From a virus (taxonomy: Duplodnaviria; Heunggongvirae; Uroviricota; Caudoviricetes): a stretch of DNA of 17,536 nucleotides. Of the stretch, positions 2,673-17,536 are shown piece by piece. Where the stretch lies: IMG/VR virus record IMGVR_UViG_2648501186_000010, positions 1-17,536 of that record. One strand, given 5' to 3'. A program made the position numbers and the translations under genes. Position 1 is the stretch's first letter; the number at the start of each line of letters is the position of its first letter. The notes under the pieces are model-generated. The model worked only from the letters and a program-made list of their open reading frames with translations, ran no database searches and was not told the origin of the DNA.

Positions 2673-3811
2673 GAATCATTCCCTTTATTCCATCAAGATT
2701 ATCACCAACCAGCATCATGGCTGCGGTGTAAACGGCAGACTGCTGCGGAATGTCCTTCATCAGTTCCAGTAACGTGGTGCCGGTGTCTCCGCTGGCAGTA
2801 AAAACCCACGCTCTGGCACTTTTTCCCTGTAAATCATTCAGGCCGCTGACCACGTCACTGATAAGCTGGTCACGCAGCTGCGTGAACTCGCCCAGCTGTT
2901 TTTTCAGCCCTTCGATATCAAACCCGGCACCCGCCGCCTTTTGTGCCTGGCTGATTGCCGCAGCAGATAAAGCAACCCTGCTGGTTGGTAACCGCCGTTA
3001 ACGCCCCCCAGATCCCGCGCAATCCCATCATGATGAATCTGGATACTCCCATCACGATATTGGCCACCGCCCCCACGGCGGCAAAGCTCAGTAGTGCCAT
3101 CGACGCATAACCAATCACACGGGCAATGTTAGGAAATAACTGCATCCAGCGGGCAAAGGTCTGCCCCATATCAGCCAGGCGATTCAGAACCGGATACAGC
3201 ACCGGGATCAGCGTCAGCCCGATCACGGTCTGAATGGCTTTCAGGATTTGCACAAAGCGATCCCACGGCTTAACCATTTTTTGAGCCATTTCCTGGGTAC
3301 GCTTCAGACCGTCCGCGCCGCCCAGTTCGGTGATGTTCCGCTGAAGTAACGCGACATTGCCGTAAAGCTGTTTAACCACTGCAGAACTGTCACCAAAGGC
3401 TGCATCCAGTTCCGCCTGGGCTTTCAGGTTCCCTTCAAGGCTTTTGCCATATTTGCCCTGCAACTTGATCAGCATTTCAGGCATGGACAGCATTTTGCCG
3501 GTGGAGTCAGTAAAGGACAGCCCCAGCTTTTTAGCGCCATCAATCGCACCAGTCATAAATCCTTCATAGGCGCTGCTGGCTTCCGTTCCCAGTGTCCGCT
3601 GAAGTTGCCCCAGAATGGCCAGCTGTTCATCCAGTCCCACGCCGTAGTTAGTCCCTACGCCGCGCGCACCTTCCATCAAATCCTTGATAGTGGCCATTTC
3701 TGTGCCAAATGTTTTGCGCATATAAACCATCTTGCCCGCCAGCTGCTCGGCAAATTCAACCTTGCCCAGTCTGGCGGCATCGGCGGAAAAGTTACCAAAC
3801 ATCTGCCCCAT
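2644..3811 (-). pseudogene. Tail tape measure protein (gpT-like) remnant: 5' end lost or fused to L, internal frameshift near 2983..2997
   Basis: Frame B (3811 down to ~2985) encodes a TMP-like domain with hydrophobic segments (VIGLTLIPVLYPVL, VIGYASMALLSFAAVGAVANIVMGV), then runs into junk and a stop at 2918. Protein-like sequence resumes in frame A (~2997 down to 2644: SRVALSAAAISQAQKAAGAGFDIEGL...IHDFDPDTGA). Frame B stays open upstream of the ATG at 3811 to a stop at 3938 with no convincing start. Confidence 0.55.
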
Positions 3812-4230
3812 AAATTCCGCCGTGTCCGCCGCTGTGGACTTGAGCGCAAAAGCCAGGGTATTTCCATACTTTCCTGTCCCGGATGAGTATCGCGCCGCCC
3901 GATAGTGGCGAACTCCCCCAGCAGATCCGCTTTTGCCCTAGCAAAAACGGCCTTCATATACTGGGCGCACAGGCTGTTCAGTCCGCCCATTTTTACACCT
4001 GGTACCTCTGCCGCCAGCGTGTAGCCTTTCGCTATCCAACTGGACTCCACGTTTTCCAGTTCCGCATTCACCTCCGCCACCGCTGCAAGCAACGCCTGGC
4101 TGATGGTGTCAGCGTCAATATCTGGCGGTAGTGACCGCTGCGCTTGAAAATCCTTCAGATTCAGATCTGGCCAGAATCCGTTATTGGTCAGCGGTTCATC
4201 CTGATAATCCAGCGGCTTTCCGCTAAACAT
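3676..4230 (-). CDS. L: Head completion/stabilisation protein gpL-like; 3' third looks out of frame or chimeric
   Basis: Immediately downstream of gpM as in P2. N-terminal two thirds protein-like (FWPDLNLKDFQAQRSLPPDIDADTISQALLAAVAEVNAELENV...). Last ~70 codons are Arg/Pro/Trp-rich and overlap the TMP frame by >100 nt. ATG at 4230 preceded by GGGGGA; the ORF could also start at GTG 4281. Confidence 0.5.
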   Translation of the reverse strand: MFSGKPLDYQDEPLTNNGFWPDLNLKDFQAQRSLPPDIDADTISQALLAAVAEVNAELENVESSWIAKGYTLAAEVPGVKMGGLNSLCAQYMKAVFARAKADLLGEFATIGRRDTHPGQESMEIPWLLRSSPQRRTRRNLWGRCLVTFPPMPPDWARLNLPSSWRARWFICAKHLAQKWPLSRI

Positions 4231-4326
4231 AAATCCCCCGAAAAAGGCGGACTGGCCGGTTTCCACGGCGCAGTTACACACAAGGTGTTCTGCCCTCCAC
4301 CGCGTCCGCCTGGCTTGCGGTAGTCT

Positions 4327-5028
4327 TTACCCTTGAGTCAGTTTTCGGATACGGGCGGCAATTGTCTGCCGCGCCGTTCTGACGCCAATTTTTGAGTAGT
4401 GTTTTTCTGCAATAGCCAGCAGCTGATCGGCTTTTTCCAGCGTTTCAATATCATCCACGCCCGCCGCCGTTTTCTGGCCATCGTCATTGCGTAGCAACTC
4501 CTGACCGGCAAACTTGAACCATTTGGCCGTCACCTGCTCATGCAGTCGCCAGGTGTTTGCCACCCGCTCAAACGTGCGGGTGAAATAAGGCTCCACACTT
4601 TCCCCGCGCCCTGCGGTTTCCTGCGCCCATGCCAGCATCGTATCCGCCACGAAAGTGGGAAAATTGCTGCGTAACCGATCCGGGGTTGCCTGCTGCTGGC
4701 TGATAGCAATGTCAGCCCAGTCCAGCGCCTTATCCAGATCGCCCACGTCAAACAGCCAGATAACACACCAGGCAAAAACCGGATTTGCATACTCCTGGCC
4801 ACTCTCCAGATAGGCTTCCACAGTGGGAACCCAGCGCGGCAACAGCACATTGCGTTTGTACTCGACGCGATCGGCGATGGTAGGCAGACTTCGAATATAT
4901 TCCACATCCGTTTCCAGCGCCCTGACCAGCAAGTGCATACTTTCCGTGGTTTCCAGTGCCTGGCTGCGCTTCAGCTTTTGTTCCATCGCAATACGCTGGC
5001 TGTGACGCTGCGCGGGGGAAAGTGCCAT
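4327..5028 (-). CDS. M: Terminase small (endonuclease) subunit, gpM-like
   Basis: 233 aa, between capsid gene N and L as in P2. ATG at 5028 lies 3 nt after the N stop, preceded by GGAGGG. Confidence 0.75.
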   Translation of the reverse strand: MALSPAQRHSQRIAMEQKLKRSQALETTESMHLLVRALETDVEYIRSLPTIADRVEYKRNVLLPRWVPTVEAYLESGQEYANPVFAWCVIWLFDVGDLDKALDWADIAISQQQATPDRLRSNFPTFVADTMLAWAQETAGRGESVEPYFTRTFERVANTWRLHEQVTAKWFKFAGQELLRNDDGQKTAAGVDDIETLEKADQLLAIAEKHYSKIGVRTARQTIAARIRKLTQG

Positions 5029-5031
5029 TTA

Positions 5032-6054
5032 TCAACCCTCCACCGGTTCGGAGACTTTGCCGATTGTCACAGCGGATTCATCAATAGCCGCATACAGCTC
5101 CGGCACTTCCACCGCGTAACCTTCATTGCGCAGGTATTTGTTTTCGAACTGCTTACGATCTTCAACAAACTCCGCCTTACGCATACGGGTATTGCGCTGG
5201 GTGTAGATGTGCAGGTTAGAAAGCGGCGTAACCACCATGCGTTTACCCGGCATAAACGGCGGGATAATAGCCGGACGGCCAGCAATGGTGCTTCCCAGCA
5301 TCTGCGCCGCGATTTTTTCAGTCGGACGGTCTGCTGCCTGATACAGTCGGTATTGTTCAGCTGCGACCAGATCGGCACCAACCAGAACAACCAGACGCGG
5401 GTCATTGCGGAACTGTGCCGGGATTTTGGCGTTAATCAGATCGGACGCCATTGCATCCAGTGATTTGTAATCCCCGGCCTCATCAAGCACCACGGCATCC
5501 GTCATAATCTGATTGCCGCCCAGCAGCGTTTTCATACGCTCATGCCAGCCAACGTTCACATCCTCGCCGTTCGGGTTAGTTTCCGGATCAGTGGTTTTCG
5601 CGCGACTTTTACCGTTAAAACCAATGCGCAACATATCCAGCGCAAAAGCCTGCGTGGTGAATGCCTGTACCAAGTTGTAAAACTCGTTTTCGTCCTTACC
5701 GGCGTTTGCCCAGACAGAAAGCAGATCCCAGCGCAACGCGGCACAGCTGTCTGTTTCAACCAGGGAATAGTCATTACCGTCAACGCCTACCTGACGAATG
5801 AAACGGCCATTTTCGCTGCGGCCGGTATGCAGCACAGAGGAACCGACAGAGATCACCTGGCCACTCAGCTGGTCAACATCCAGACAGGTGATCATGTTCA
5901 GGAACTCGACGGACTCCAGCAACGCAAGACGCAGCGCATTTTCCTGCGGGTCATTCAGGGAAAAATATCGACTGGTATCACGCGCACCAAACTGCTGCGC
6001 CATCCCCGCCGAATATTTATCCAGTAAATCCCGCGCACGATTATTAAGGTGCAT
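5032..6054 (-). CDS. N: Major capsid protein, P2 gpN family
   Basis: 340 aa from ATG 6054 (AAGGAG RBS just upstream; the track ORF extends to TTG 6069). Recalled similarity to the P2 N region (FNGKSRAKTTDPETNPNGEDVNVGWHERMK, PRLVVLVGADLV). Synteny O-N-M. Confidence 0.85.
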   Translation of the reverse strand: MHLNNRARDLLDKYSAGMAQQFGARDTSRYFSLNDPQENALRLALLESVEFLNMITCLDVDQLSGQVISVGSSVLHTGRSENGRFIRQVGVDGNDYSLVETDSCAALRWDLLSVWANAGKDENEFYNLVQAFTTQAFALDMLRIGFNGKSRAKTTDPETNPNGEDVNVGWHERMKTLLGGNQIMTDAVVLDEAGDYKSLDAMASDLINAKIPAQFRNDPRLVVLVGADLVAAEQYRLYQAADRPTEKIAAQMLGSTIAGRPAIIPPFMPGKRMVVTPLSNLHIYTQRNTRMRKAEFVEDRKQFENKYLRNEGYAVEVPELYAAIDESAVTIGKVSEPVEG

Positions 6055-6116
6055 AAAACTCCTTCGCAATTAAGCGATTTAAAAATATATTCTGGGCTAA
6101 TTAGCAATAAAGCGAA

Positions 6117-6920
6117 TTACAGGAAATTAAATTTCCCGGCTTTATCTTTTATAGTACGCCCCGGTGTACGGGTGTTTTTATTACCCAGTTCGTTAAAGCG
6201 GGTTACGATTTCTTTTGCATTATCGCGAATTGCCGCAAATTCCTGCGTATCCACCACTTCAGCAATTGTGTCAACATCACCCTGAACGTCATTCAGTTGA
6301 GTTTCAATTTTCGCCACTCGCGCTTCCAGATCGTTCACCACATTGGCAAGCGCCTGTAATTTATCTTCATCCGGAGCAGGATTATCCTGCGGCGTTTCAT
6401 CTTCAAACTTTGGCTTAATACCAAACAGTTTCTGCCAGTTCTTCATTCTTGCTTCCTGTTTAATTTTTCCGTCGCGGGAAATTACACAGCTGTAATATCC
6501 CTGCTTTGTTAATTTATTGCGCCGACTACTAAAGCGCAGCCGTGTGGTGCCAACGCTGGCAGGTGTATCTGTTACCGCCAGCCCTTTCAGGTAAGTACGC
6601 CCGCTACCGCGCCAGTTTTCTTCCGGCTCAATGGAGAAGAACAAAAGCTGATCTTCATGATTTGCGAAAATCAGACGCATATTCGGGCAAAGGCTGACAT
6701 ATAACCGTGCCAGTCCATCTTCACCATCATTCCAGGTGGCTTCCAGCACTTCACCAAAATTCCCGCAATCATCCTCATGTTCTGGCCAGATTAAAGCGAC
6801 ATAGTGGCTATAGTCATAGGTTTCCCCCATATCAATGATCCACTGCCGTTTAATTACCCTGCCATCAACGGTATCCCCTTCAGTAGCAACACACAGCCAG
6901 TCAGTTTTTAAATGTGACAT
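6117..6920 (-). CDS. O: Capsid scaffolding protein, gpO family
   Basis: 267 aa from ATG 6920 (GGGGGG RBS). N-terminus WLCVATEGDTVDGRVI resembles the gpO N-terminal motif, with a coiled-coil-like C-terminal half. Divergent from P as in P2. Confidence 0.8.
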   Translation of the reverse strand: MSHLKTDWLCVATEGDTVDGRVIKRQWIIDMGETYDYSHYVALIWPEHEDDCGNFGEVLEATWNDGEDGLARLYVSLCPNMRLIFANHEDQLLFFSIEPEENWRGSGRTYLKGLAVTDTPASVGTTRLRFSSRRNKLTKQGYYSCVISRDGKIKQEARMKNWQKLFGIKPKFEDETPQDNPAPDEDKLQALANVVNDLEARVAKIETQLNDVQGDVDTIAEVVDTQEFAAIRDNAKEIVTRFNELGNKNTRTPGRTIKDKAGKFNFL

Positions 6921-7002
6921 ATCCCCCCTGTTCCACTCCCTGACGCTGCAAACCAATTATTGCCAAATAAAACCACCACCGCATTACGCTTTATTCTGAA
7001 CA

Positions 7003-7027
7003 GTTCGGTTATAACGCTTTACCGAAC
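7003..7027. promoter_or_regulatory. Perfect 7 bp inverted repeat (GTTCGGT-N11-ACCGAAC) in the O/P divergent intergenic region; candidate late-activator binding site
   Basis: gttcggt (7003..7009), 11 nt spacer, accgaac (7021..7027). Centred ~67 bp upstream of the P start and ~95 bp upstream of the O start, where P2-type late promoters carry an upstream activator dyad. Confidence 0.3.
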
Positions 7028-7081
7028 AGACACGAATTAACACCACCGTTTTTTCATCACAGCCACGGCATAATTATCCGC

Positions 7082-8857
7082 ATGGCTAAATACTCTGAAG
7101 AATTAAAAGGCGTTGTTCGCGCACTTTATCTGCGCCGCTATACGCCAAAGGAAATCGCATCTGAATTAAATCTGCCGAATGCGCGGATCGTTTACTACTG
7201 GGCGGAGAAATACAGCTGGGCGGATTTGCTCAGTTTTGAAAGCACAGAGGAAGCAATTGAACGCCGTTACCAGCTGCTGGCCAGCCGCGATAACAAAACC
7301 GATCTCGACCTGGAAGAAATGGACATGCTCATTGCTCATGCCACGAAACTGCGTGCGCAGAGTAATAAACACAAAGAGAAAATGGCCAGCGGTCAGAGTT
7401 CCGGGCAAGCAGCTGCGCGGGACAACAATGACGACGAATCACGCAGCAAACGGAAATACAAGAAAAACGATATTACGTCGCTGACGCAGGAGGACTTTGA
7501 CGCATGGGCTGAAGAACATCTTTTTGAATATCAGAAACACCTGCGCAATAACATTGGCCAGCTTGTCAGGAACATCCTGAAAAGCCGCCAGATCGGTGCG
7601 ACCTGGTATTTTGCGTTTGAAGCGTTTGAAAACGCGGTGATGACCGGCGATCCGCAAATCTTTCTGTCAGCGTCAAAGGCACAGGCTGAAGTGTTCCGGT
7701 CTTACATCGTGAATATTGCAGAGCAGTATTTCGGTATTACGCTAACCGGCAACCCGATCCGCTTAAGCAACGGCGCAGAACTGCGTTTTCTCTCCACCAA
7801 CAAAAACACCGCCCAGTCCTACAGTGGCCACCTGTACTGTGACGAATATTTCTGGGTGCCAAACTTTGCAAAACTTAACGAAGTGGCCAGCGCAATGGCC
7901 ACACATGACAAGTGGCGCACCACCTATTTTTCAACGCCATCGGCAAAAACGCACCAGGCTTACCCGTTCTGGACGGGCGATGAGTGGAAACAGGGCAGTA
8001 AAAAACGTGCGGCCATTAAGTTTCCGTCCTTTAACGACATGCGTGACGGCGGGCGACTCTGCCCGGATGGGCAATGGCGCTACGTCATTACGATGGAAGA
8101 TGCCATTGCGGGCGGTTTCAACCTGGCGAACATCGAGAAACTTCGCAACCGCTACAACGACGCCACTTTTAACATGCTCTATATGTGCGTGTTCGTTGAC
8201 AGCAAAGATTCCGTTTTCAGCTTTTCTGACCTAGAAGCCTGCGGCGTTGAAATCGACACCTGGCAGGATCACAACCCTGATGCAACGCGGCCATTCGGTG
8301 ACAGGCCAGTTTGGGGCGGCTTTGACCCGGCTCGCAGCGGTGATTTGTCTTGTTTTGTCATCATCGCCCCGCCGATGCTCGCCGTGGAGAAGTTCCGCGT
8401 TCTGAAGGTGATTTACTGGAAAGGCATGAACTTCCGGTATCAGGCAAAACAGATCGAGCAGTTGTTCAAAAAATACAACTTCACTTATCTGGGAGTAGAC
8501 GTTACCGGCATTGGCCAGGGTGTTTTTGACAACATTCAGCATTTTGCCATGCGCGTGGCCGTCCCTATTCGTTACGACCTGAACACCAAAAATCAACTGG
8601 TGCTGAAAGCGGTGGACGTGGTGGAAAGCCAACGTATTGAGTGGGATAAAAACCTGAAAGAGATCGCGGCCAGCTTTATGTCTGTGCGCCGAACCACCAC
8701 ACAAAGCGGCAACGCCATGACGTTTGTCGCTGACCGCAGCCAGGATACTGGCCACGCGGAGGCGTTCTGGGCGATTACCCACGGTCTGCATAACGAACCC
8801 CTTAACTATGAAAACAAACCTAAATCCCGCTGGGGTGTAAGGAAAGAGGCAGCATGA
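7082..8857 (+). CDS. P: Terminase large (ATPase) subunit, gpP family
   Basis: 591 aa (P2 gpP is about 590). Divergent from O, and its stop overlaps the Q start (ATGA), as in P2-like phages. Confidence 0.9.
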   Translation: MAKYSEELKGVVRALYLRRYTPKEIASELNLPNARIVYYWAEKYSWADLLSFESTEEAIERRYQLLASRDNKTDLDLEEMDMLIAHATKLRAQSNKHKEKMASGQSSGQAAARDNNDDESRSKRKYKKNDITSLTQEDFDAWAEEHLFEYQKHLRNNIGQLVRNILKSRQIGATWYFAFEAFENAVMTGDPQIFLSASKAQAEVFRSYIVNIAEQYFGITLTGNPIRLSNGAELRFLSTNKNTAQSYSGHLYCDEYFWVPNFAKLNEVASAMATHDKWRTTYFSTPSAKTHQAYPFWTGDEWKQGSKKRAAIKFPSFNDMRDGGRLCPDGQWRYVITMEDAIAGGFNLANIEKLRNRYNDATFNMLYMCVFVDSKDSVFSFSDLEACGVEIDTWQDHNPDATRPFGDRPVWGGFDPARSGDLSCFVIIAPPMLAVEKFRVLKVIYWKGMNFRYQAKQIEQLFKKYNFTYLGVDVTGIGQGVFDNIQHFAMRVAVPIRYDLNTKNQLVLKAVDVVESQRIEWDKNLKEIAASFMSVRRTTTQSGNAMTFVADRSQDTGHAEAFWAITHGLHNEPLNYENKPKSRWGVRKEAA

Positions 8858-9915
8858 GTAAAAAGAAACGCTTTGTTAAGCGCGACCAGCGCGGCGACAA
8901 ATCAAAAAAGATGAGCATTATCACATTCGGCAAACCTGAACCGGTTCTGACTACCGGCACAGATTACCGTGATATCTGGTACGACAATGCCGCCGATCAC
9001 TTCACCCAGCCGATTGACCGGCTGGCACTCGCACAGCTGATTAATCTTAACGGTCAGCACGGCGGCATCATTCACGCCCGCAAAAACATGATTGTTTCAG
9101 ACTACCTGGGGGGCGGGCTTATTCACGACCAGCTGGAAGCGGCAGCGTTTGACTATATAACCTTTGGGGATATTGCGATTGCCAAAATTCGTAACGGCTG
9201 GGGCGACGTGATCGCACTTGAACCCTTGCCCGGTCTGTATATTCGCCGCCGCAAAGTCAGAGATAACGCCCTGGATAAGCCCGGTGACTACGTGGTGTTA
9301 CAGGAAGGAGAACCGCAGGTATGGCCAGAAGAAGATATTATCTTCATCAAAATGTATGACCCACAACAGCATATCTACGGACTGCCGGACTACATCGGCG
9401 GTGTACATTCCGCGTTACTTAACAGTGAAGCGGTCATTTTCCGACGCCGCTATTACCACAACGGTGCGCACACAGGCGGTATTCTTTATACTCGCGATCC
9501 CAGCATGACGGACGAAATGGAGGAAGAAATTGAACAGCAGCTGCGTGACAGCAAAGGGATCGGTAACTTCTCCACCATCCTTGTAAACATTCCCGGTGGA
9601 GACGGCGACGCCATCAAATTCATTGAAATGGGGGATATTTCCGCGAAGGATGAATTTGCCAACATCAAAAACATCAGCGCCCAGGACATTCTGAACGCGC
9701 ACCGTTTCCCTGCCGGCCTCGCCGGTATTGTCCCGCAGAACACTGCCGGACTGGGGGATGTTGAAAAGGCTGAACGCATTTACAAGAAAAGCGAAATTGC
9801 CCCCATCCAGCGCCGTTTCATGCTGGCCGTTAACAACGATCCTGAAATACCGGAAAGGCTGCACCTTAACTTTGATTTAAGTTACACAGAATCAACGGAT
9901 AAGGGTGCGGCATGA
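8854..9915 (+). CDS. Q: Portal (capsid vertex) protein, gpQ family
   Basis: 353 aa directly downstream of and overlapping P; size and position match P2 gpQ. Confidence 0.9.
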   Translation: MSKKKRFVKRDQRGDKSKKMSIITFGKPEPVLTTGTDYRDIWYDNAADHFTQPIDRLALAQLINLNGQHGGIIHARKNMIVSDYLGGGLIHDQLEAAAFDYITFGDIAIAKIRNGWGDVIALEPLPGLYIRRRKVRDNALDKPGDYVVLQEGEPQVWPEEDIIFIKMYDPQQHIYGLPDYIGGVHSALLNSEAVIFRRRYYHNGAHTGGILYTRDPSMTDEMEEEIEQQLRDSKGIGNFSTILVNIPGGDGDAIKFIEMGDISAKDEFANIKNISAQDILNAHRFPAGLAGIVPQNTAGLGDVEKAERIYKKSEIAPIQRRFMLAVNNDPEIPERLHLNFDLSYTESTDKGAA

Positions 9916-9965
9916 GGCGAAAGAGGCTAAAATCCAGGCATCATTTAACAGCTGGAGCATGGAAT

Positions 9966-10235
9966 ATGCGAGTTCTGAAAATCGAATGCCCGGAATGCGG
10001 CTCAAAGGCTGTTATTCGTAAAACAAACAGGAAGCACCGGCAGATTGCCGATATTTACTGTGCCTGTTCAGATGTTGAGTGTGGCCACACGTTTGTTATG
10101 AATCTGACGTTCTCCCACACTCTCAGCCCCAGCGCTAAAACGGGTGATGCGATGGTGCAAAAAATACTGAATGCACTTTCACCCGATCAGCGCCAGATGG
10201 CATTAGACCTACTGAAAGCGACTCCCGCCGCCTGA
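9966..10235 (+). CDS. Ogr/Delta-family zinc-finger late transcription activator, with ~45 aa C-terminal extension
   Basis: MRVLKIECPECGSKAVIRKTNRKHRQIADIYCACSDVECGHTF matches the Ogr/Delta C-x2-C ... C-x4-C..TF pattern (P2 Ogr, 186 B). GGAG 9 nt upstream of ATG 9966; an alternative ATG at 9912 overlaps the Q stop. Confidence 0.7.
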   Translation: MRVLKIECPECGSKAVIRKTNRKHRQIADIYCACSDVECGHTFVMNLTFSHTLSPSAKTGDAMVQKILNALSPDQRQMALDLLKATPAA

Positions 10236-10415
10236 AATGCCCCCATTCTGGGGGCGTTGCCCTTCCTTTTTAACTATTTCGCGAACCTCTCCCGCAAGCT
10301 CTCCAATCCAGGCCAAAGCGATTGTTTTTTCTCTCTGGTTACTTTCGTAAACATGGGCAATTTTGGCCAATAACTCAATGCGTTCCAGCTGTGCCGACGC
10401 CTCCAAAAGATCCAT
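10209..10415 (-). CDS. Small protein (68 aa), candidate SOS-inducible antirepressor-type gene (Tum-like by position and regulation only)
   Basis: ATG at 10415 with GGGGG-containing RBS; helical-looking sequence (LERIELLAKIAHVYESNQREKTIALAWIGELAGEVREIVKK). A LexA-box-like site lies 25 bp upstream. Same strand as and downstream of A, where P2/186 carry accessory genes (tin/old, tum). Confidence 0.4.
   Translation of the reverse strand: MDLLEASAQLERIELLAKIAHVYESNQREKTIALAWIGELAGEVREIVKKEGQRPQNGGISGGGSRFQ
10240..10270 (+). terminator. Possible terminator hairpin after the ogr-like gene
   Basis: GCCCCCA-ttc-TGGGGGC stem-loop (10240..10256) followed by gttgcccttccttttt; the T-tract is offset from the stem, so weak. 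Confidence 0.3.
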
Positions 10416-10439
10416 TTAGCCCCCACAAGCAATAAATAA

Positions 10440-10455
10440 CTGGATATACATACAG
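10440..10455. promoter_or_regulatory. LexA-box-like site (CTGG-ATATACAT-ACAG; minus strand CTGTATGTATATCCAG)
   Basis: CTG-N10-CAG core with AT-rich centre; 14 of 16 matches to the CTGTATATATATACAG consensus. A minus-strand TTGTCA -35-like hexamer lies about 50 bp upstream of the box. Confidence 0.4.
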
Positions 10456-10534
10456 TACACCTTAAAGCACGAATTGTGAAATTTAATTTCCTGCCATCTA
10501 CTGACAAATGAATGCCTTTCACATAATTACACCG

Positions 10535-12556
10535 CTATAACCACCCCGGCCACAGTTCCTGCAATGGCTCGTTTTGAGTCTCTTTAAGCCGCCCGTTGCG
10601 GTAAATCAGAGCGCCCTGACCAAATCTCAAACCACTACCCCGCAAGAGAATGGCTATTTCTTCATCAGAACCATCAAAACCCCGACTGCGTAATTCCAGT
10701 TTTAACCGTCTGCGGGCTCCCCCCTCCGTACAGTTATTGACAGAACTCCAAGGGGCGGCGTTGCCGCCAGAAAAACCCGCCTCCGCTGGCGCTTCGGCCA
10801 ACTTCGCAACCTTTTGCCACTTAACCAGACGGGTGCAAACTTCTGAATCAGGAACCAAAGGAGAATAAACCCCCTGTATGCGCTGCACGTCCTCTGCATA
10901 CTCGTTGCCCTGTTCCGTAATTTCATAGGCCAGACGAACAACCAGATCACGGCGGGCAACCAGTGCACCGCCCTGCGCCTGGGTATATGCAGCCCAGTCC
11001 CCGACATCAGCAGCGGCCAGAACCGCATCCATTCTGCGATCGGTCAGCACCTGATCCCGCAACCGACGCAGCTCACGCCAGACAGTTACCGGCGCACCAC
11101 CAATCTGCTGAAACTGACGAATACGCCAGCGTGAAGCCCATGCAGAAACGGACTTAGCCATATCACGCAGGTTTTCGCCGGTTTCTTCGTCATGCTCACC
11201 ATCCAGCGCAAAACCATCAATATTTTTTGAAATGTATTTCGCGATGTAGCCCGTGGCCGAACCTTTGGCGGGATCGATAGCTTCAACATGAAAACGCGCC
11301 TTCAGCGCCTTTTCAGATTGCAGTTCTTCAGAATCGGTAATTCTGGCGTGATAGCAAAGAATATCGCGTACCGTGTCCACGTCATGCGGACGCATAAAAA
11401 GCAACATATGCCAGTGCGGTGTCCCGTCATGGTGAGGCTCAACAACCCGAAACCCAAATACATGAATACCCGCACGCGAGATCGCTGCGCGTGCTTTTGC
11501 CCATACGCCGCATAAATAGCGCTGGGTATCCTGCGGCGTACATCCATCCCATTGCGATACAAAGCCACCTTTGCTGTGCACTGCGTGGAAACGTGATGGC
11601 GCGGTGATGGTGTAAAACTCACCGGCCAGCCCTTCTTCATTGGCCATATCTTCAAACCCTCGCATTCTTACCATTAGTTCACATCGACGGATCGCCGGAT
11701 TTGCAACGCTGCGGTGCACCATGCTGTCCAGTGCAATGCGCAGCCCCTCATCATTCAGCAGATCAAACTTTTTAAAGAACTCCAGATTCCGCTTTTTCTG
11801 GTCTATCCATTCGTCCAGTGTTTTGCGGGATACATAAGCGCTGGCCGCTTTTTGTACCTGTCCCACCGCGATGGCCATATGTTCGCGCTGCATATCACGC
11901 GCACGTTTAAGACGTAGGTACCACCATTCCGGCGCCATCATGCGCAGTATCCCGGATTCCGCCTTACGCATTTCCAGTTGACCTTCATTGGCCTCATGTT
12001 CAGCCCAGTACGGCGGCTGGTTATTCAGCATCAGGCAACCCGCGCAAAGATGGCGGTATGATTCCAAGGTGCGGCGATGCAGCTCTCTGGCGTCGTCAGT
12101 GCCAGAGTCAAACTGTTCGGTGAAGTCATAAAGTGACTGGGAAATCCAACCAGATACCTGGCCAGCCAGTTTTTTAAGATCAGGACGGTCTAGTGACGGC
12201 AAGCGCTCCATCGACTTACCAAAAGGAAGATCAGCAGCGTCAGCGGCCAGCGAGTAACGCGCAGCCACTTTGCGCAGACGTGGCAATACACTCCCGCCGA
12301 TAGTCTGGCGCAGGAATGTATTGGCACGGCGACGCCCGTCACGACCAGCAAACAGCTTTTCGTAACGACGGCCAAAATACCCGGCTAACCAGTCGGGTAT
12401 CTCATGAAGGTACTGTGAGCGCCATTCGTAATCCTGTGGGTTAACCGCCCACAGGCGGCGCTCAGTGAGCGTGGCGTCTGTAGGTGTACCCGGTGCGAAC
12501 GTTTCACGCCGCCAGGTATCGACGGCGTGATGTTGGCCATTGGCGACAGGAGTCAT
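10535..12556 (-). CDS. A: Rolling-circle replication initiator (gpA family, HUH endonuclease)
   Basis: 673 aa with HUH-type motif (GTPHWHMLLF) and catalytic-Tyr motif (YIAKYISK) typical of P2/186 A proteins. Start ATG overlaps the dam stop (ATGA). Confidence 0.85.
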   Translation of the reverse strand: MTPVANGQHHAVDTWRRETFAPGTPTDATLTERRLWAVNPQDYEWRSQYLHEIPDWLAGYFGRRYEKLFAGRDGRRRANTFLRQTIGGSVLPRLRKVAARYSLAADAADLPFGKSMERLPSLDRPDLKKLAGQVSGWISQSLYDFTEQFDSGTDDARELHRRTLESYRHLCAGCLMLNNQPPYWAEHEANEGQLEMRKAESGILRMMAPEWWYLRLKRARDMQREHMAIAVGQVQKAASAYVSRKTLDEWIDQKKRNLEFFKKFDLLNDEGLRIALDSMVHRSVANPAIRRCELMVRMRGFEDMANEEGLAGEFYTITAPSRFHAVHSKGGFVSQWDGCTPQDTQRYLCGVWAKARAAISRAGIHVFGFRVVEPHHDGTPHWHMLLFMRPHDVDTVRDILCYHARITDSEELQSEKALKARFHVEAIDPAKGSATGYIAKYISKNIDGFALDGEHDEETGENLRDMAKSVSAWASRWRIRQFQQIGGAPVTVWRELRRLRDQVLTDRRMDAVLAAADVGDWAAYTQAQGGALVARRDLVVRLAYEITEQGNEYAEDVQRIQGVYSPLVPDSEVCTRLVKWQKVAKLAEAPAEAGFSGGNAAPWSSVNNCTEGGARRRLKLELRSRGFDGSDEEIAILLRGSGLRFGQGALIYRNGRLKETQNEPLQELWPGWL

Positions 12557-14725: not shown

Positions 14726-15229
14726 TCACATCAGGCCGGTGGCGTTGGTTGTGACCAGCTCCACCGCCGCAGCCAGAACAGGCGCAGAGTGAATACGGCT
14801 TTCAACGGTATAAGCCAGCACGGATAAGCTACGGATTGCATCGCGGGCACGATCCAGAATTTGAGTACGGCGGGCGGCAGTCATATAGCCAGTTGATACG
14901 GCTTCCCCAGCAATCGCGCCCACACTGGCTGTGGCACTCAGTGCGCACAACTGCATGTTGCCTTCTGTGGCATTGTTCACCGGCACGGATGGAAGGCAGT
15001 TAATCTGACCTAACATCCCATCAAGCAAACGCGCATCTTCGGTGTAATCCGTGATAGCCAAAAGCTCATCACAGGTCAGGCGGTGCGGTTGTGCTGGGTT
15101 CAGTTTGTTGCGCAGGATCTGCGGCCTCATACCAACGGCAGCGGCCACATCTTCAAGATTGTGCTCAATTGCAAATGCTCGGCAAGCCGCATCAAAGTGC
15201 GCATGTTTAGAGGTCTGGTAATCAAACAT
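14726..15229 (-). CDS. cII: CII-like transcriptional activator (phage 186 CII family)
   Basis: N-terminus MFDYQTSKHAHFDAACRAFA closely resembles my recollection of 186 CII (MFDFQVSKHPHYDEACRAFA), with similar length (167 aa). Sits between apl and the early genes; GGGAGAGG RBS. Confidence 0.8.
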   Translation of the reverse strand: MFDYQTSKHAHFDAACRAFAIEHNLEDVAAAVGMRPQILRNKLNPAQPHRLTCDELLAITDYTEDARLLDGMLGQINCLPSVPVNNATEGNMQLCALSATASVGAIAGEAVSTGYMTAARRTQILDRARDAIRSLSVLAYTVESRIHSAPVLAAAVELVTTNATGLM

Positions 15230-15259
15230 TGTTTGCCTCTCCCGAATCCGTAGGATGGA

Positions 15260-15481
15260 TTACGCGTTAAGCGAAATGTCACATTCGCTTAAAGCCTGAA
15301 TAGTGAGCGCGGCCATGTTGACTTCGACCAAGCCTTTCTTCTGCTTACCCTTCGGCTTAATAGGTAATTTCCCGTATTCGATCAGGTTCCTGGCGGTTTC
15401 TTTGTTGGTACCAGTACGGCGGCAATACTCGTCTAAAGGCAGGTATGGCTCAGGGATGATGATTGTAATGTTCGGACGCAT
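15260..15481 (-). CDS. apl: Apl/Cox-type excisionase and switch regulator
   Basis: 73 aa from ATG 15481 (GGAG RBS). First gene of the operon divergent from cI; small basic protein with HTH-like segment (TGTNKETARNLIEYGKLPIKPKG). Confidence 0.7.
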   Translation of the reverse strand: MRPNITIIIPEPYLPLDEYCRRTGTNKETARNLIEYGKLPIKPKGKQKKGLVEVNMAALTIQALSECDISLNA

Positions 15482-15502
15482 GAGGCAAACTCCACAAGTT
15501 AA

Positions 15503-15520
15503 CCTGTACGGCAATACAGG
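15503..15520. promoter_or_regulatory. Inverted repeat CCTGTA-N6-TACAGG in the switch region (operator candidate; also fits CTGT-N8-ACAG)
   Basis: Perfect 6 bp arms. Sits between TTAACC (15500..15505) and TTATAT (15523..15528), which have -35/-10-like spacing on the plus strand toward cI. Confidence 0.3.
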
Positions 15521-15566
15521 GTTATATAAGGCAACATTCAAAATATGGAGCCAGATTAATTCGCGT

Positions 15567-15596
15567 TTCGAGAAGTGTCAATTTTAATTTCTCGAA
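15567..15596. promoter_or_regulatory. Perfect 8 bp inverted repeat TTCGAGAA-N14-TTCTCGAA overlapping a minus-strand TTGACA hexamer (candidate pR operator)
   Basis: Arms at 15567..15574 and 15589..15596. The spacer contains tgtcaa (15576..15581), i.e. TTGACA on the minus strand, a plausible -35 for the apl/cII operon. Lies 21 bp upstream of the cI start. Confidence 0.35.
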
Positions 15597-15616: not shown

Positions 15617-16198
15617 ATGAGCACATTTAAAATCGACCTAAACGTAGATAGCACACCGATTCTTGACAGGGTGATCGAGGCTTACGGATTTACGCAGAAG
15701 TTACAGCTCGCGGAACATCTGGACATGGCAGCCAGTTCTCTTTCTTCACGCTACAAGCGTGGAGTTTTCCCGGCAGACATTGTCGTGAAATGTGTAGCCG
15801 AAACAGGCGCTAATCTGGAGTGGCTGGCGACAGGACAGGGACGTAAATTTAATGATGATGAATTAGACATACTCAAAATACCGCGCAGCAAGATTGTTGA
15901 TGGCCAACTCTATGACGCTGGCACACTTATGCTTGATAAAGTCATCTTCCTGCCTGGTAAGCCCTTACCGCAACAACCGATTTGTGTTCTGGATGGCCTT
16001 GTTCAGTACATTGTTGACCAGTCTTATTCTGAAGTTTATGACGATGATTGGTTGGTTGAAGTTGAAGGAAAAACAAGCGTCCGCACTCTTACACGGATTC
16101 CGGTACGAAAAGTCAGAGTTAGCGGTGTTGGTATGGCATTTGATTGCGGAATTGACGACATAAAAATCATAGGCCGCGTTGTTCTGACGATAAAATAA
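15617..16198 (+). CDS. cI: CI immunity repressor (phage 186 CI family)
   Basis: LDRVIEAYGFTQKLQLAEHLDMAASSLSSRYKRGVFPADIVVKCVAETGANLEWLATGQG matches my recollection of the 186 CI N-terminal HTH domain; C-terminal FDCGIDDIKIIGRVV also matches. ATG 15617 gives 193 aa (186 CI is 192). Stop is 1 nt before the int ATG. Confidence 0.85.
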   Translation: MSTFKIDLNVDSTPILDRVIEAYGFTQKLQLAEHLDMAASSLSSRYKRGVFPADIVVKCVAETGANLEWLATGQGRKFNDDELDILKIPRSKIVDGQLYDAGTLMLDKVIFLPGKPLPQQPICVLDGLVQYIVDQSYSEVYDDDWLVEVEGKTSVRTLTRIPVRKVRVSGVGMAFDCGIDDIKIIGRVVLTIK

Positions 16199-16199
16199 A

Positions 16200-17240
16200 A
16201 TGAGCGTTCGTAAACTTCCTACAGGCGAATGGATCGCCGACTTCTACACCGTCAACCGCAGTAATGGCAAGAACGGGAAGCGTATACGTAAAAAATTTGC
16301 CACGAAAGGGGAAGCCCTGGCATTCGAAAACCATACGCTTCAGAAAGTAGACGCAGCTCCGTGGCTGGGTGAAGGGAAGGACAAGCGAACTTTAATAGAT
16401 CTGATAACAATGTGGTATGAACGCCACGGCGTAGCTTTGAGCAATGGCGAAAAGCGTAAAAATGCTATGACCTGGGCGGCGGAATGCATGGGATTCCCGC
16501 TGGCCACAGAATTTAATGCCCAGTTGTTCACAGCCTACCGCGCTAAAAGGCTGGATGGGCATTATGCCCGTACCAACAGAGTATCTAAGGTTTCCCCGAA
16601 AACTATGAACCTTGAACATGCTTACTTCCTGGCTATGTTCAACGAGCTGAAACGGATTGGTGAATGGTCAGCACCCAACCCACTAGAAAACGTCAGACAG
16701 TATCGTACTGATGAAACCGAAATGGCTTTCCTCACTACCGAAGAAATTGATCGGCTTTTACTGGAATGCAAACGAAGTAAAGTTAAGTACCTAGAATTAG
16801 TTGTCAAAATCTGCCTTGCTACCGGCGCAAGGTGGAATGAGGCGGCAACGCTGAAAAGCTCCCAGATCGCCGGGGGTAAAGTCACGTTCGTCAAAACCAA
16901 AGGGAAGCGCAACAGAACAATTCCCCTTGATGATGAACTTCTGTCCGAATTGCCTGAAACAAAAGGCGCTCTGTTCCCCAAGCCCTGCTACAACGCTTTC
17001 CGCTCTGCTCTGGAACGTGCAGGCATTGAACTCCCCTCCGGCCAGCTTACCCATGTACTGCGCCATACATTTGCCAGCCACTTTATGATGAACGGCGGAA
17101 ACATTCTGGTTCTGCAAAAAATTCTCGGCCACGCTGACATCACTATGACAATGCGTTATGCCCATTTCGCCCCAAGCCACCTTGAAGATGCCGTGCGACT
17201 TAACCCCTTAAAATGTCGCAAAAATGTCGCGACAGCTTAG
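16200..17240 (+). CDS. int: Tyrosine recombinase / phage integrase (P2/186 Int family)
   Basis: 346 aa with C-terminal catalytic motifs (LRHTFASHF...ILGHADITMTMRYAHF). Immediately downstream of cI, as in 186. Confidence 0.9.
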   Translation: MSVRKLPTGEWIADFYTVNRSNGKNGKRIRKKFATKGEALAFENHTLQKVDAAPWLGEGKDKRTLIDLITMWYERHGVALSNGEKRKNAMTWAAECMGFPLATEFNAQLFTAYRAKRLDGHYARTNRVSKVSPKTMNLEHAYFLAMFNELKRIGEWSAPNPLENVRQYRTDETEMAFLTTEEIDRLLLECKRSKVKYLELVVKICLATGARWNEAATLKSSQIAGGKVTFVKTKGKRNRTIPLDDELLSELPETKGALFPKPCYNAFRSALERAGIELPSGQLTHVLRHTFASHFMMNGGNILVLQKILGHADITMTMRYAHFAPSHLEDAVRLNPLKCRKNVATA

Positions 17241-17407: not shown

Positions 17408-17536
17408 ATGAATGAGTTCAAGAGGTGTATGCGCGTGTTTAGTCATTCTCCCTTTAAAGTACGGTTAATGCTGCTCTCTATGTTGTGCGATATGGTCAAC
17501 AACAAACCGCAGCAAGATAAACCTTCCGATAAATAG
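17408..17536 (+). CDS. Small ORF (42 aa), hydrophobic and Cys-containing; probably a flanking host gene
   Basis: Strong RBS (CAGGAGG, 4 nt spacer) before ATG 17408; the stop is the last codon of the window. Translation MNEFKRCMRVFSHSPFKVRLMLLSMLCDMVNNKPQQDKPSDK. Confidence 0.4.
   Translation: MNEFKRCMRVFSHSPFKVRLMLLSMLCDMVNNKPQQDKPSDK

Follow-up and report, generated by a model that had tools for sequence, protein, structure and literature searches.

A probable SOS-induction module with a short, DinI-less tum gene in a 186-like prophage of Escherichia coli

Phage 186, unlike P2, is SOS-inducible through the LexA-controlled antirepressor Tum. A LexA-box-like site in front of a small ORF downstream of the replication gene A, in the DNA analysed here (17,536 nt of IMG/VR record IMGVR_UViG_2648501186_000010, hereafter the window), raises the question of whether this locus is a 186-style SOS-induction module, as a sequence-only reading of the same DNA had proposed. 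The proposal is supported by homology of the ORF to Tum, by promoter hexamers of the 186 p95 type combined with a LexA box, and by CI, CII and Apl-like genes of the 186 type. We consider it highly probable that the locus is the SOS-induction module of a 186-like E. coli prophage, with an antirepressor gene, tum, under LexA control. The mechanism is already well known; what is new is an example that the databases leave unnamed.

The window represents a P2/186-like E. coli prophage (Peduoviridae, ESSI-2/Quadragintavirus-type). Among sequenced phages it is closest to ESSI2_ev040, ev015 and ev129 (Quadragintavirus) and to Salmonella phage S.Kent 1-2-1. Several E. coli strains have identical DNA in their chromosomes, and the region occurs in 25 of 5426 complete genomes. 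On the plus strand, terminase, portal and ogr follow one another and converge on tum. The minus strand carries tum, gpA, a Dam methylase, a DUF2732 protein and, further along, Fil, CII and an Apl-like gene; divergent from the last of these, on the plus strand, lie CI and then the integrase. The genes on which the argument draws are the following.

9912..10235, plus strand: Ogr/Delta-type zinc-finger late-gene activator, convergent with tum (PF04606, E 9e-20; phrog_603, E 7e-45)
10535..12556, minus strand: replication endonuclease gpA, encoded upstream of tum and in the same direction (PF05840, E 6e-105)
15617..16198, plus strand: CI immunity repressor of the 186 type (PF07022, E 6e-23, and PF16452, E 4e-31)
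14726..15541, minus strand: CI-repressed early lytic operon, with the Apl-like gene at 15260-15481 and CII at 14726-15229 (CII, PF06892, E 1.8e-46)

The listed ORF for CI starts at 15575, and PGAP begins the gene of an identical prophage at Met15 (15617), which is likely the real start. The Apl-like ORF was assigned by its position and by PGAP annotation. Because a 186-type CI, CII and an Apl-like gene are all present, the lysogeny switch is of the 186 type and not of the P2 C/Cox type.

The host gene mntS occupies the right end of the window (17408-17536), placing the integrated prophage next to mntS, past the integrase (16200-17240). Measured against L170, the intact prophage of E. coli XYEH3934, the window is missing positions 2679-8017 and 8896-13711 of L170, two blocks of ~5.3 kb and ~4.8 kb (~10 kb in total) whose junctions lie at window positions ~2985-2990 and ~3861 and whose genes encode tail fibre, baseplate, tape measure, lysis and tail sheath/tube functions. 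The window copy is either a defective prophage or a mis-assembly, with the SOS module itself intact; since ~10 kb of tail and lysis genes are absent, induction of this particular copy may not yield phage. In P2 and 186, the cos site is flanked by the right-end genes on one side and portal on the other. Searching the window with the P2 cos 19-mer and with the 186 cos region gave no match, and between 9915 and 10535 portal, ogr and tum abut or overlap, leaving no intergenic space.

The first component of the proposed module is its operator.

10438..10457, minus strand: candidate LexA operator (SOS box), TACTGTATGTATATCCAGTT on the minus strand, identified by consensus match, heterology index and conservation

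The LexA-box-like 16-mer described in the sequence-only reading, CTGGATATACATACAG, is present at 10440-10455 (CTGTATGTATATCCAG on the minus strand). It does lie upstream of the ATG of the small ORF, at a distance slightly shorter than the 25 bp originally given: 24 nt separate the 16-mer from the ATG, and 22 nt separate the full 20-mer from it. One could suppose that such a palindrome arose by chance and regulates nothing, and the bare CTG-N10-CAG pattern is indeed common: the window has 10 occurrences where 4.4 would be expected. The extended site tells against this. The 20-mer at 10438-10457, AACTGGATATACATACAGTA, has three mismatches to TACTGTATATATATACAGTA and is the only 20-mer of the window within three mismatches of that sequence, where 0.00 would be expected.

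Scoring the site with a LexA position weight matrix had been suggested together with the original observation. We used the Berg-von Hippel/Lewis heterology index (HI), with a matrix built from 16 E. coli LexA operators that were each checked as an exact 20-mer upstream of an SOS gene in K-12 MG1655. The site scored an HI of 2.2, the best in the window and well ahead of the runner-up at 10.3, and none of 200 shuffled sequences came as low (best 6.26). When the 16 real K-12 operators were scored by leave-one-out, their HI values ran from 1.1 to 11.6 and only that of umuDC (1.13) was better than the window site. An earlier matrix derived from 27 sites gave an HI of 2.39, leaving the picture unchanged. 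With an HI inside the range of real operators, the site has the properties predicted of an E. coli-type LexA operator.

The box is also conserved. Among the 78 IMG/VR loci for which upstream sequence was available, 76 carry a LexA box (HI up to 7.3) that ends 15-29 nt from the start codon, and the box persists in loci whose protein has dropped to 38% identity and whose flanking DNA can no longer be aligned. The order of gpA, LexA box and tum, followed by convergent ogr and portal, is constant wherever flanks are present among the 80 IMG/VR loci. An expectation of zero for the 20-mer, shuffles that come nowhere near its HI, and an invariant position in 76 of 78 loci despite diverged flanks effectively refute a chance match, to which we assign a negligible probability.

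Both exceptions among the 78 loci affect the box itself. In L082 the left half-site has been lost. In L014 (IMGVR_UViG_2791354791_000011), an ISL3-family insertion sequence occupies 1641-2973, in the exact centre of the LexA box; it encodes a 406-aa transposase (PF01610, E 1e-55) and is flanked by an 8-bp target duplication, ATGTATAT. The insertion parts the promoter and the left half-site from tum, and looks like a natural knock-out of SOS inducibility.

Two other sites in the window bear some likeness to a LexA operator. The second-best 20-mer, CGCCGAATATTTATCCAGTA at 6007-6026, has an HI of 10.3 and is without the left CTG; it is probably a chance match, because some of the 200 shuffles scored better. 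At 15502-15521, in the apl/cI switch region, ACCTGTACGGCAATACAGGG forms a CTGTA-N6-TACAG palindrome with an HI of 13.6-14.8, at best a very weak LexA-like site and more likely an operator for CI or Apl.

Around the box, the following promoter and ribosome-binding elements can be recognised.

10475..10480, minus strand: -35 hexamer TTCACA of a p95-like promoter, identical with the annotated 186 p95 -35 and assigned by analogy
10452..10457, minus strand: -10 hexamer TACTGT, which is at the same time the left half-site of the LexA box, identical with the annotated 186 p95 -10
10421..10425, minus strand: G-rich Shine-Dalgarno-like element GGGGG, 5 nt before the tum ATG, read from the sequence

On the minus strand, 17 nt separate TTCACA (10480..10475) from TACTGT (10457..10452). 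In both the window and the p95 promoter of the 186 record, the LexA site begins at the same T of the -10 TACTGT. TTTCACA is kept in most of the related loci, where an element of the GGAGG or GGGGG type also stands at an equal distance before the start. A generic sigma-70 scan passed over the p95-like pair and returned a different, weaker one, TTGTCA/TAAATT at 10507..10480, so the promoter is assigned by analogy with 186 and by conservation. On this assignment the box would cover the promoter of tum, with the LexA operator overlapping the -10 hexamer.

We then turn to the gene behind the operator. The 68-aa minus-strand ORF that the sequence-only reading placed downstream of the box was recovered at 10415..10209 with an ATG start, and its 3′ end overlaps the convergent ogr gene (9912-10235) by 27 nt, as that reading had stated. 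In PHROGs, the ORF matches phrog_698 (3.8e-22), phrog_8554 (6.5e-11) and phrog_1993 (1e-3), all three listed under ‘unknown function’. The N-terminal 60 residues of 186 Tum match the same three families, and two further phage proteins fall among them, Fels-2 STM2728 in phrog_698 (6e-38) and PSP3 TumA in phrog_1993. An alignment to 186 Tum had been put forward as a check on the original proposal, and it bore the proposal out for the N-terminal half of the protein: BLASTP aligned ORF residues 4-41 with Tum residues 5-42 (32% identity, E 1e-5), and hhalign aligned a 25-sequence profile with Tum residues 5-43 at 92.5% probability. The window ORF shares 35% identity (E 9e-9) with ECHS_RS04495, the 62-aa protein of prophage DuoHS in E. 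coli HS, and likewise 35% with the short Tum of Fels-2; the DuoHS and Fels-2 proteins are 97% identical to each other, and both belong to phrog_698. Identity of the ORF to characterised Tum proteins is low, at 32-35% across ~40 residues. A profile search of 1.84 billion representative proteins yielded 77 relatives, all of them short (36-112 aa); the fused 146-aa Tum was not among the hits at E ≤ 0.001. Homologues of the ORF are found in Escherichia, Salmonella, Citrobacter, Cronobacter, Raoultella and Pluralibacter, and every one is named ‘hypothetical’.

Tum of 186 combines an antirepressor, which makes up its N-terminal half, with a fused DinI-like half (Lemire et al., PMC3121763). The alignments indicate that the window ORF is homologous to this N-terminal antirepressor half and is without the DinI-like half. 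A tblastn search of the window and of the 3-kb flanks of 80 related loci, with the Tum C-terminal half and E. coli DinI as queries, detected no DinI homologue, and the same search recovered the DinI parts of 186, PSP3 and Fels-2, which served as controls. The sequence-only reading had also suggested an alignment of the ORF with DinI-like proteins. A DinI-like identity is rejected because no DinI homologue occurs in the window or its relatives; the ORF itself matches no DinI profile (PF06183/NF007893), and its alignment to Tum ends at residue 43, before the DinI part. Assignment as a full-length Tum-DinI fusion, or as one member of a tumA-tumB pair, was likewise rejected, there being no fused or adjacent DinI-like domain. 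Judged on its sequence, the ORF is best classed as a TumA-type (short Tum), DinI-less protein, and agrees with that family in every sequence-level feature.

Comparison with characterised phages places the locus among several related arrangements. As in the window, p95-tum of 186 has its gene downstream of A on the same strand, with -35 TTCACA, -10 TACTGT and a LexA box over the -10; 186 also shares the CI, CII and Apl switch and an homologous stretch of ~40 N-terminal Tum residues. Unlike the window protein, 186 Tum is 146 aa long with a DinI-like C-terminal half (phrog_189, NF007893). The 186 tum gene is followed by orf97 and then cos, whereas in the window orf97 is absent and tum ends tail to tail inside ogr. 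In Fels-2 and PSP3 the Tum halves are separate genes, and the upstream gene of PSP3 has antirepressor activity (PMC3121763). In the PSP3 record, TumA carries the annotation ‘UV induction of prophage’. Like the window ORF, PSP3 TumA is a stand-alone protein of ~60 aa equal to the 5′ half of tum, with a LexA box upstream; it differs in having the DinI homologue tumB directly downstream, and its family, phrog_1993, is matched only weakly by the window ORF (E 1e-3).

Two relatives of the same PHROG are Fels-2 STM2728 and DuoHS ECHS_RS04495, which like the window ORF are stand-alone, helical phrog_698 proteins encoded downstream of gpA behind a LexA box. These short Tum proteins have 62 aa against 68 aa in the window. 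They are preceded by two overlapping LexA boxes and have a DinI-like gene directly downstream, whereas the window shows one box and lacks a DinI gene; other genes separate their tum region from the portal gene, whereas the window tum overlaps ogr. The minor distinctive features of the window locus are thus its single LexA box, its want of a DinI partner and its tail-to-tail overlap with ogr. A wider parallel exists in GfoA and GftA of the Gifsy prophages and AntC of N15, which share the logic of a small LexA-repressed antirepressor that inactivates a non-cleavable repressor (PMC3121763). These belong to other phage types, unlike the window, and the Gifsy operon begins with a dinI homologue; no search returned a sequence relationship of the window ORF to GfoA, GftA or AntC.

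The overlap with ogr makes it necessary to ask which parts of the ORF behave as a gene, and here the ORF divides into two.

10266..10415, minus strand: tum core, codons 1-50, a helical-hairpin TumA-type domain (phrog_698, 3.8e-22; hhalign; dN/dS; AlphaFold2)
10209..10265, minus strand: tum tail, codons 51-68 and stop, spanning the ogr hairpin and the final 27 nt of that gene
10240..10256, plus strand: GC-rich hairpin GCCCCCATTCTGGGGGC followed by a T-rich stretch, read from the sequence, inside the tum tail

Across 41 distinct 68-codon alleles, dN/dS for codons 1-50 was 0.09-0.29 in most comparisons with an estimable dS, and for codons 51-68 it was ~0.5-2.9, with no clear constraint on the tum frame. 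Purifying selection thus acts on codons 1-50 and not on the tail that overlaps ogr. An AlphaFold2 model of the ORF has helices at residues 2-22 and 27-53 and a disordered tail (mean pLDDT 82), with pLDDT above 90 across most of the core and below 50 at residues 61-68. Where ogr is not adjacent, the tail differs in length and sequence, and the best explanation of its apparent conservation elsewhere (GGxSGGGSRFQ) is constraint on the other strand. Since the tail is encoded by the ogr hairpin together with the last 27 nt of ogr, and the core is constrained, the functional unit is a helical hairpin of ~50 residues.

The hairpin at 10240..10256 is likely the intrinsic terminator of the portal-ogr transcript; a terminator scan called an overlapping hairpin at 10250-10266, and homologous loci have cleaner terminator hairpins followed by a T-run. 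There is no convincing minus-strand terminator 3′ of the tum ORF. A transcript that starts at the p95-like promoter must therefore overlap at least 27 nt of ogr, and this might be taken to mean that the main output of the locus is RNA, an SOS-induced antisense transcript into the convergent ogr/portal operon that modulates late genes, with the ORF incidental to it. We regard this as very improbable. Codons 1-50 are under purifying selection and the protein is conserved down to 38% identity, from which it follows that the ORF is translated and selected. Moreover, 9 of the 80 loci have 0.7-1.3 kb between tum and ogr and still keep both box and ORF, and a search of Rfam with 9800-10800 gave no match.

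The nine loci with this extra DNA between the tum 3′ end and ogr are L038, L040, L050, L063, L064, L066, L067, L069 and L077; they mark the tum-ogr junction as a candidate cargo insertion site.

Operator quality and conservation, promoter architecture, homology, purifying selection, synteny and a 186-type CI are all observed at this locus, and by analogy with 186 they suggest how a LexA-controlled tum would work here. In the lysogen, host LexA would occupy 10438-10457, over the -10 hexamer of the p95-like promoter, and keep tum silent. DNA damage would activate RecA, LexA would cleave itself and the promoter would fire, so that transcription would be SOS-dependent. The product would be a helical-hairpin protein of ~50 residues with an unconstrained tail. 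Tum would then bind the non-cleavable 186-type CI and stop it from binding its operators, and this inactivation of CI would derepress pR and the early lytic operon (apl, cII, through to A), leading to lytic development. These proposed steps follow established knowledge of 186.

If Tum acts on CI, the two proteins might be expected to diverge together. Among 59 dereplicated prophages drawn from the related loci L088-L167, the Mantel correlation between Tum and CI divergence was r = 0.44, falling to a partial r of about -0.1 when CII was controlled for. Tum correlated with gpA, Ogr, portal and CII at r = 0.78-0.92, CII being the highest (0.92), and CI co-varied with Apl (r = 0.85) and Int (r = 0.74). 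The test thus gave no specific Tum-CI signal. Almost identical Tum cores were paired with CIs of merely 37-70% identity; the CIs of the window and of DuoHS are 34% identical over their full length. Such missing co-variation is unexpected for a highly specific antirepressor-repressor pair.

These correlations also bear on a different reading, in which the gene is SOS-controlled and its product is an accessory protein acting on some other target (CII, RecA or anti-defence) and no antirepressor of CI. This reading would account for a Tum that does not track CI and tracks CII best of all, and it is helped by the searches of known families and structures: Pfam and NCBIfam scans of the ORF gave no family match, a profile search of PDB sequences returned noise only (E ≥ 0.8), and Foldseek of the AlphaFold2 model against the PDB found generic helical hairpins, none at E ≤ 0.001, so that no curated family or solved structure assigns the fold a function. 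Set against this is the behaviour of CI, Apl and Int, which form a mobile immunity/integration module. Because this module recombines, the high Tum-CII correlation is explained equally well by shared vertical descent. In addition, the ORF is homologous to the very part of Tum that carries antirepressor activity (PMC3121763), and its position and promoter are as in 186. In the Phollow study, deletion of the DuoHS tum (ECHS_RS04495), like lexA(Ind-), abolished induction by mitomycin C (PMC12055606), and this gene, required for induction, belongs to the same PHROG as the window ORF. A target other than CI is improbable in our judgement.

Retaining CI as the target, either Tum recognises a conserved surface of CI or its specificity is looser than a lock-and-key fit. 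It is possible, if rather doubtful, that the short Tum of this lineage is a broad-specificity antirepressor that binds a conserved surface of 186-type CI and needs no DinI partner. Broad specificity, if true, would be the reason why near-identical Tum cores stand beside CIs of 37-70% identity. A single allele of Tum could in that case act on prophages of several immunity types and induce even heteroimmune P2/186-like ones resident in the same cell, a situation that resembles the crosstalk among Gifsy prophages. The mismatch between Tum and CI variation thereby raises a testable question about antirepressor specificity and cross-induction.

The LexA-tum reading predicts that widespread enterobacterial P2/186-like prophages, in Escherichia, Salmonella, Citrobacter, Cronobacter and other hosts, are SOS-induced via an antirepressor and not by repressor cleavage. 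The gene itself is easily overlooked. Of the 25 complete E. coli genomes that carry the region, 15 were listed with their PGAP annotation, and the ORF is unannotated in most of these and ‘hypothetical’ in the rest. Genes of this kind are left unnamed or unannotated because the antirepressor half of Tum lies outside every Pfam and NCBIfam model; our 25-sequence alignment could seed such a family model. In one of the closest phages, ESSI2_ev040, the annotated gene encodes 86 aa and has its start within the LexA box, which is probably wrong.
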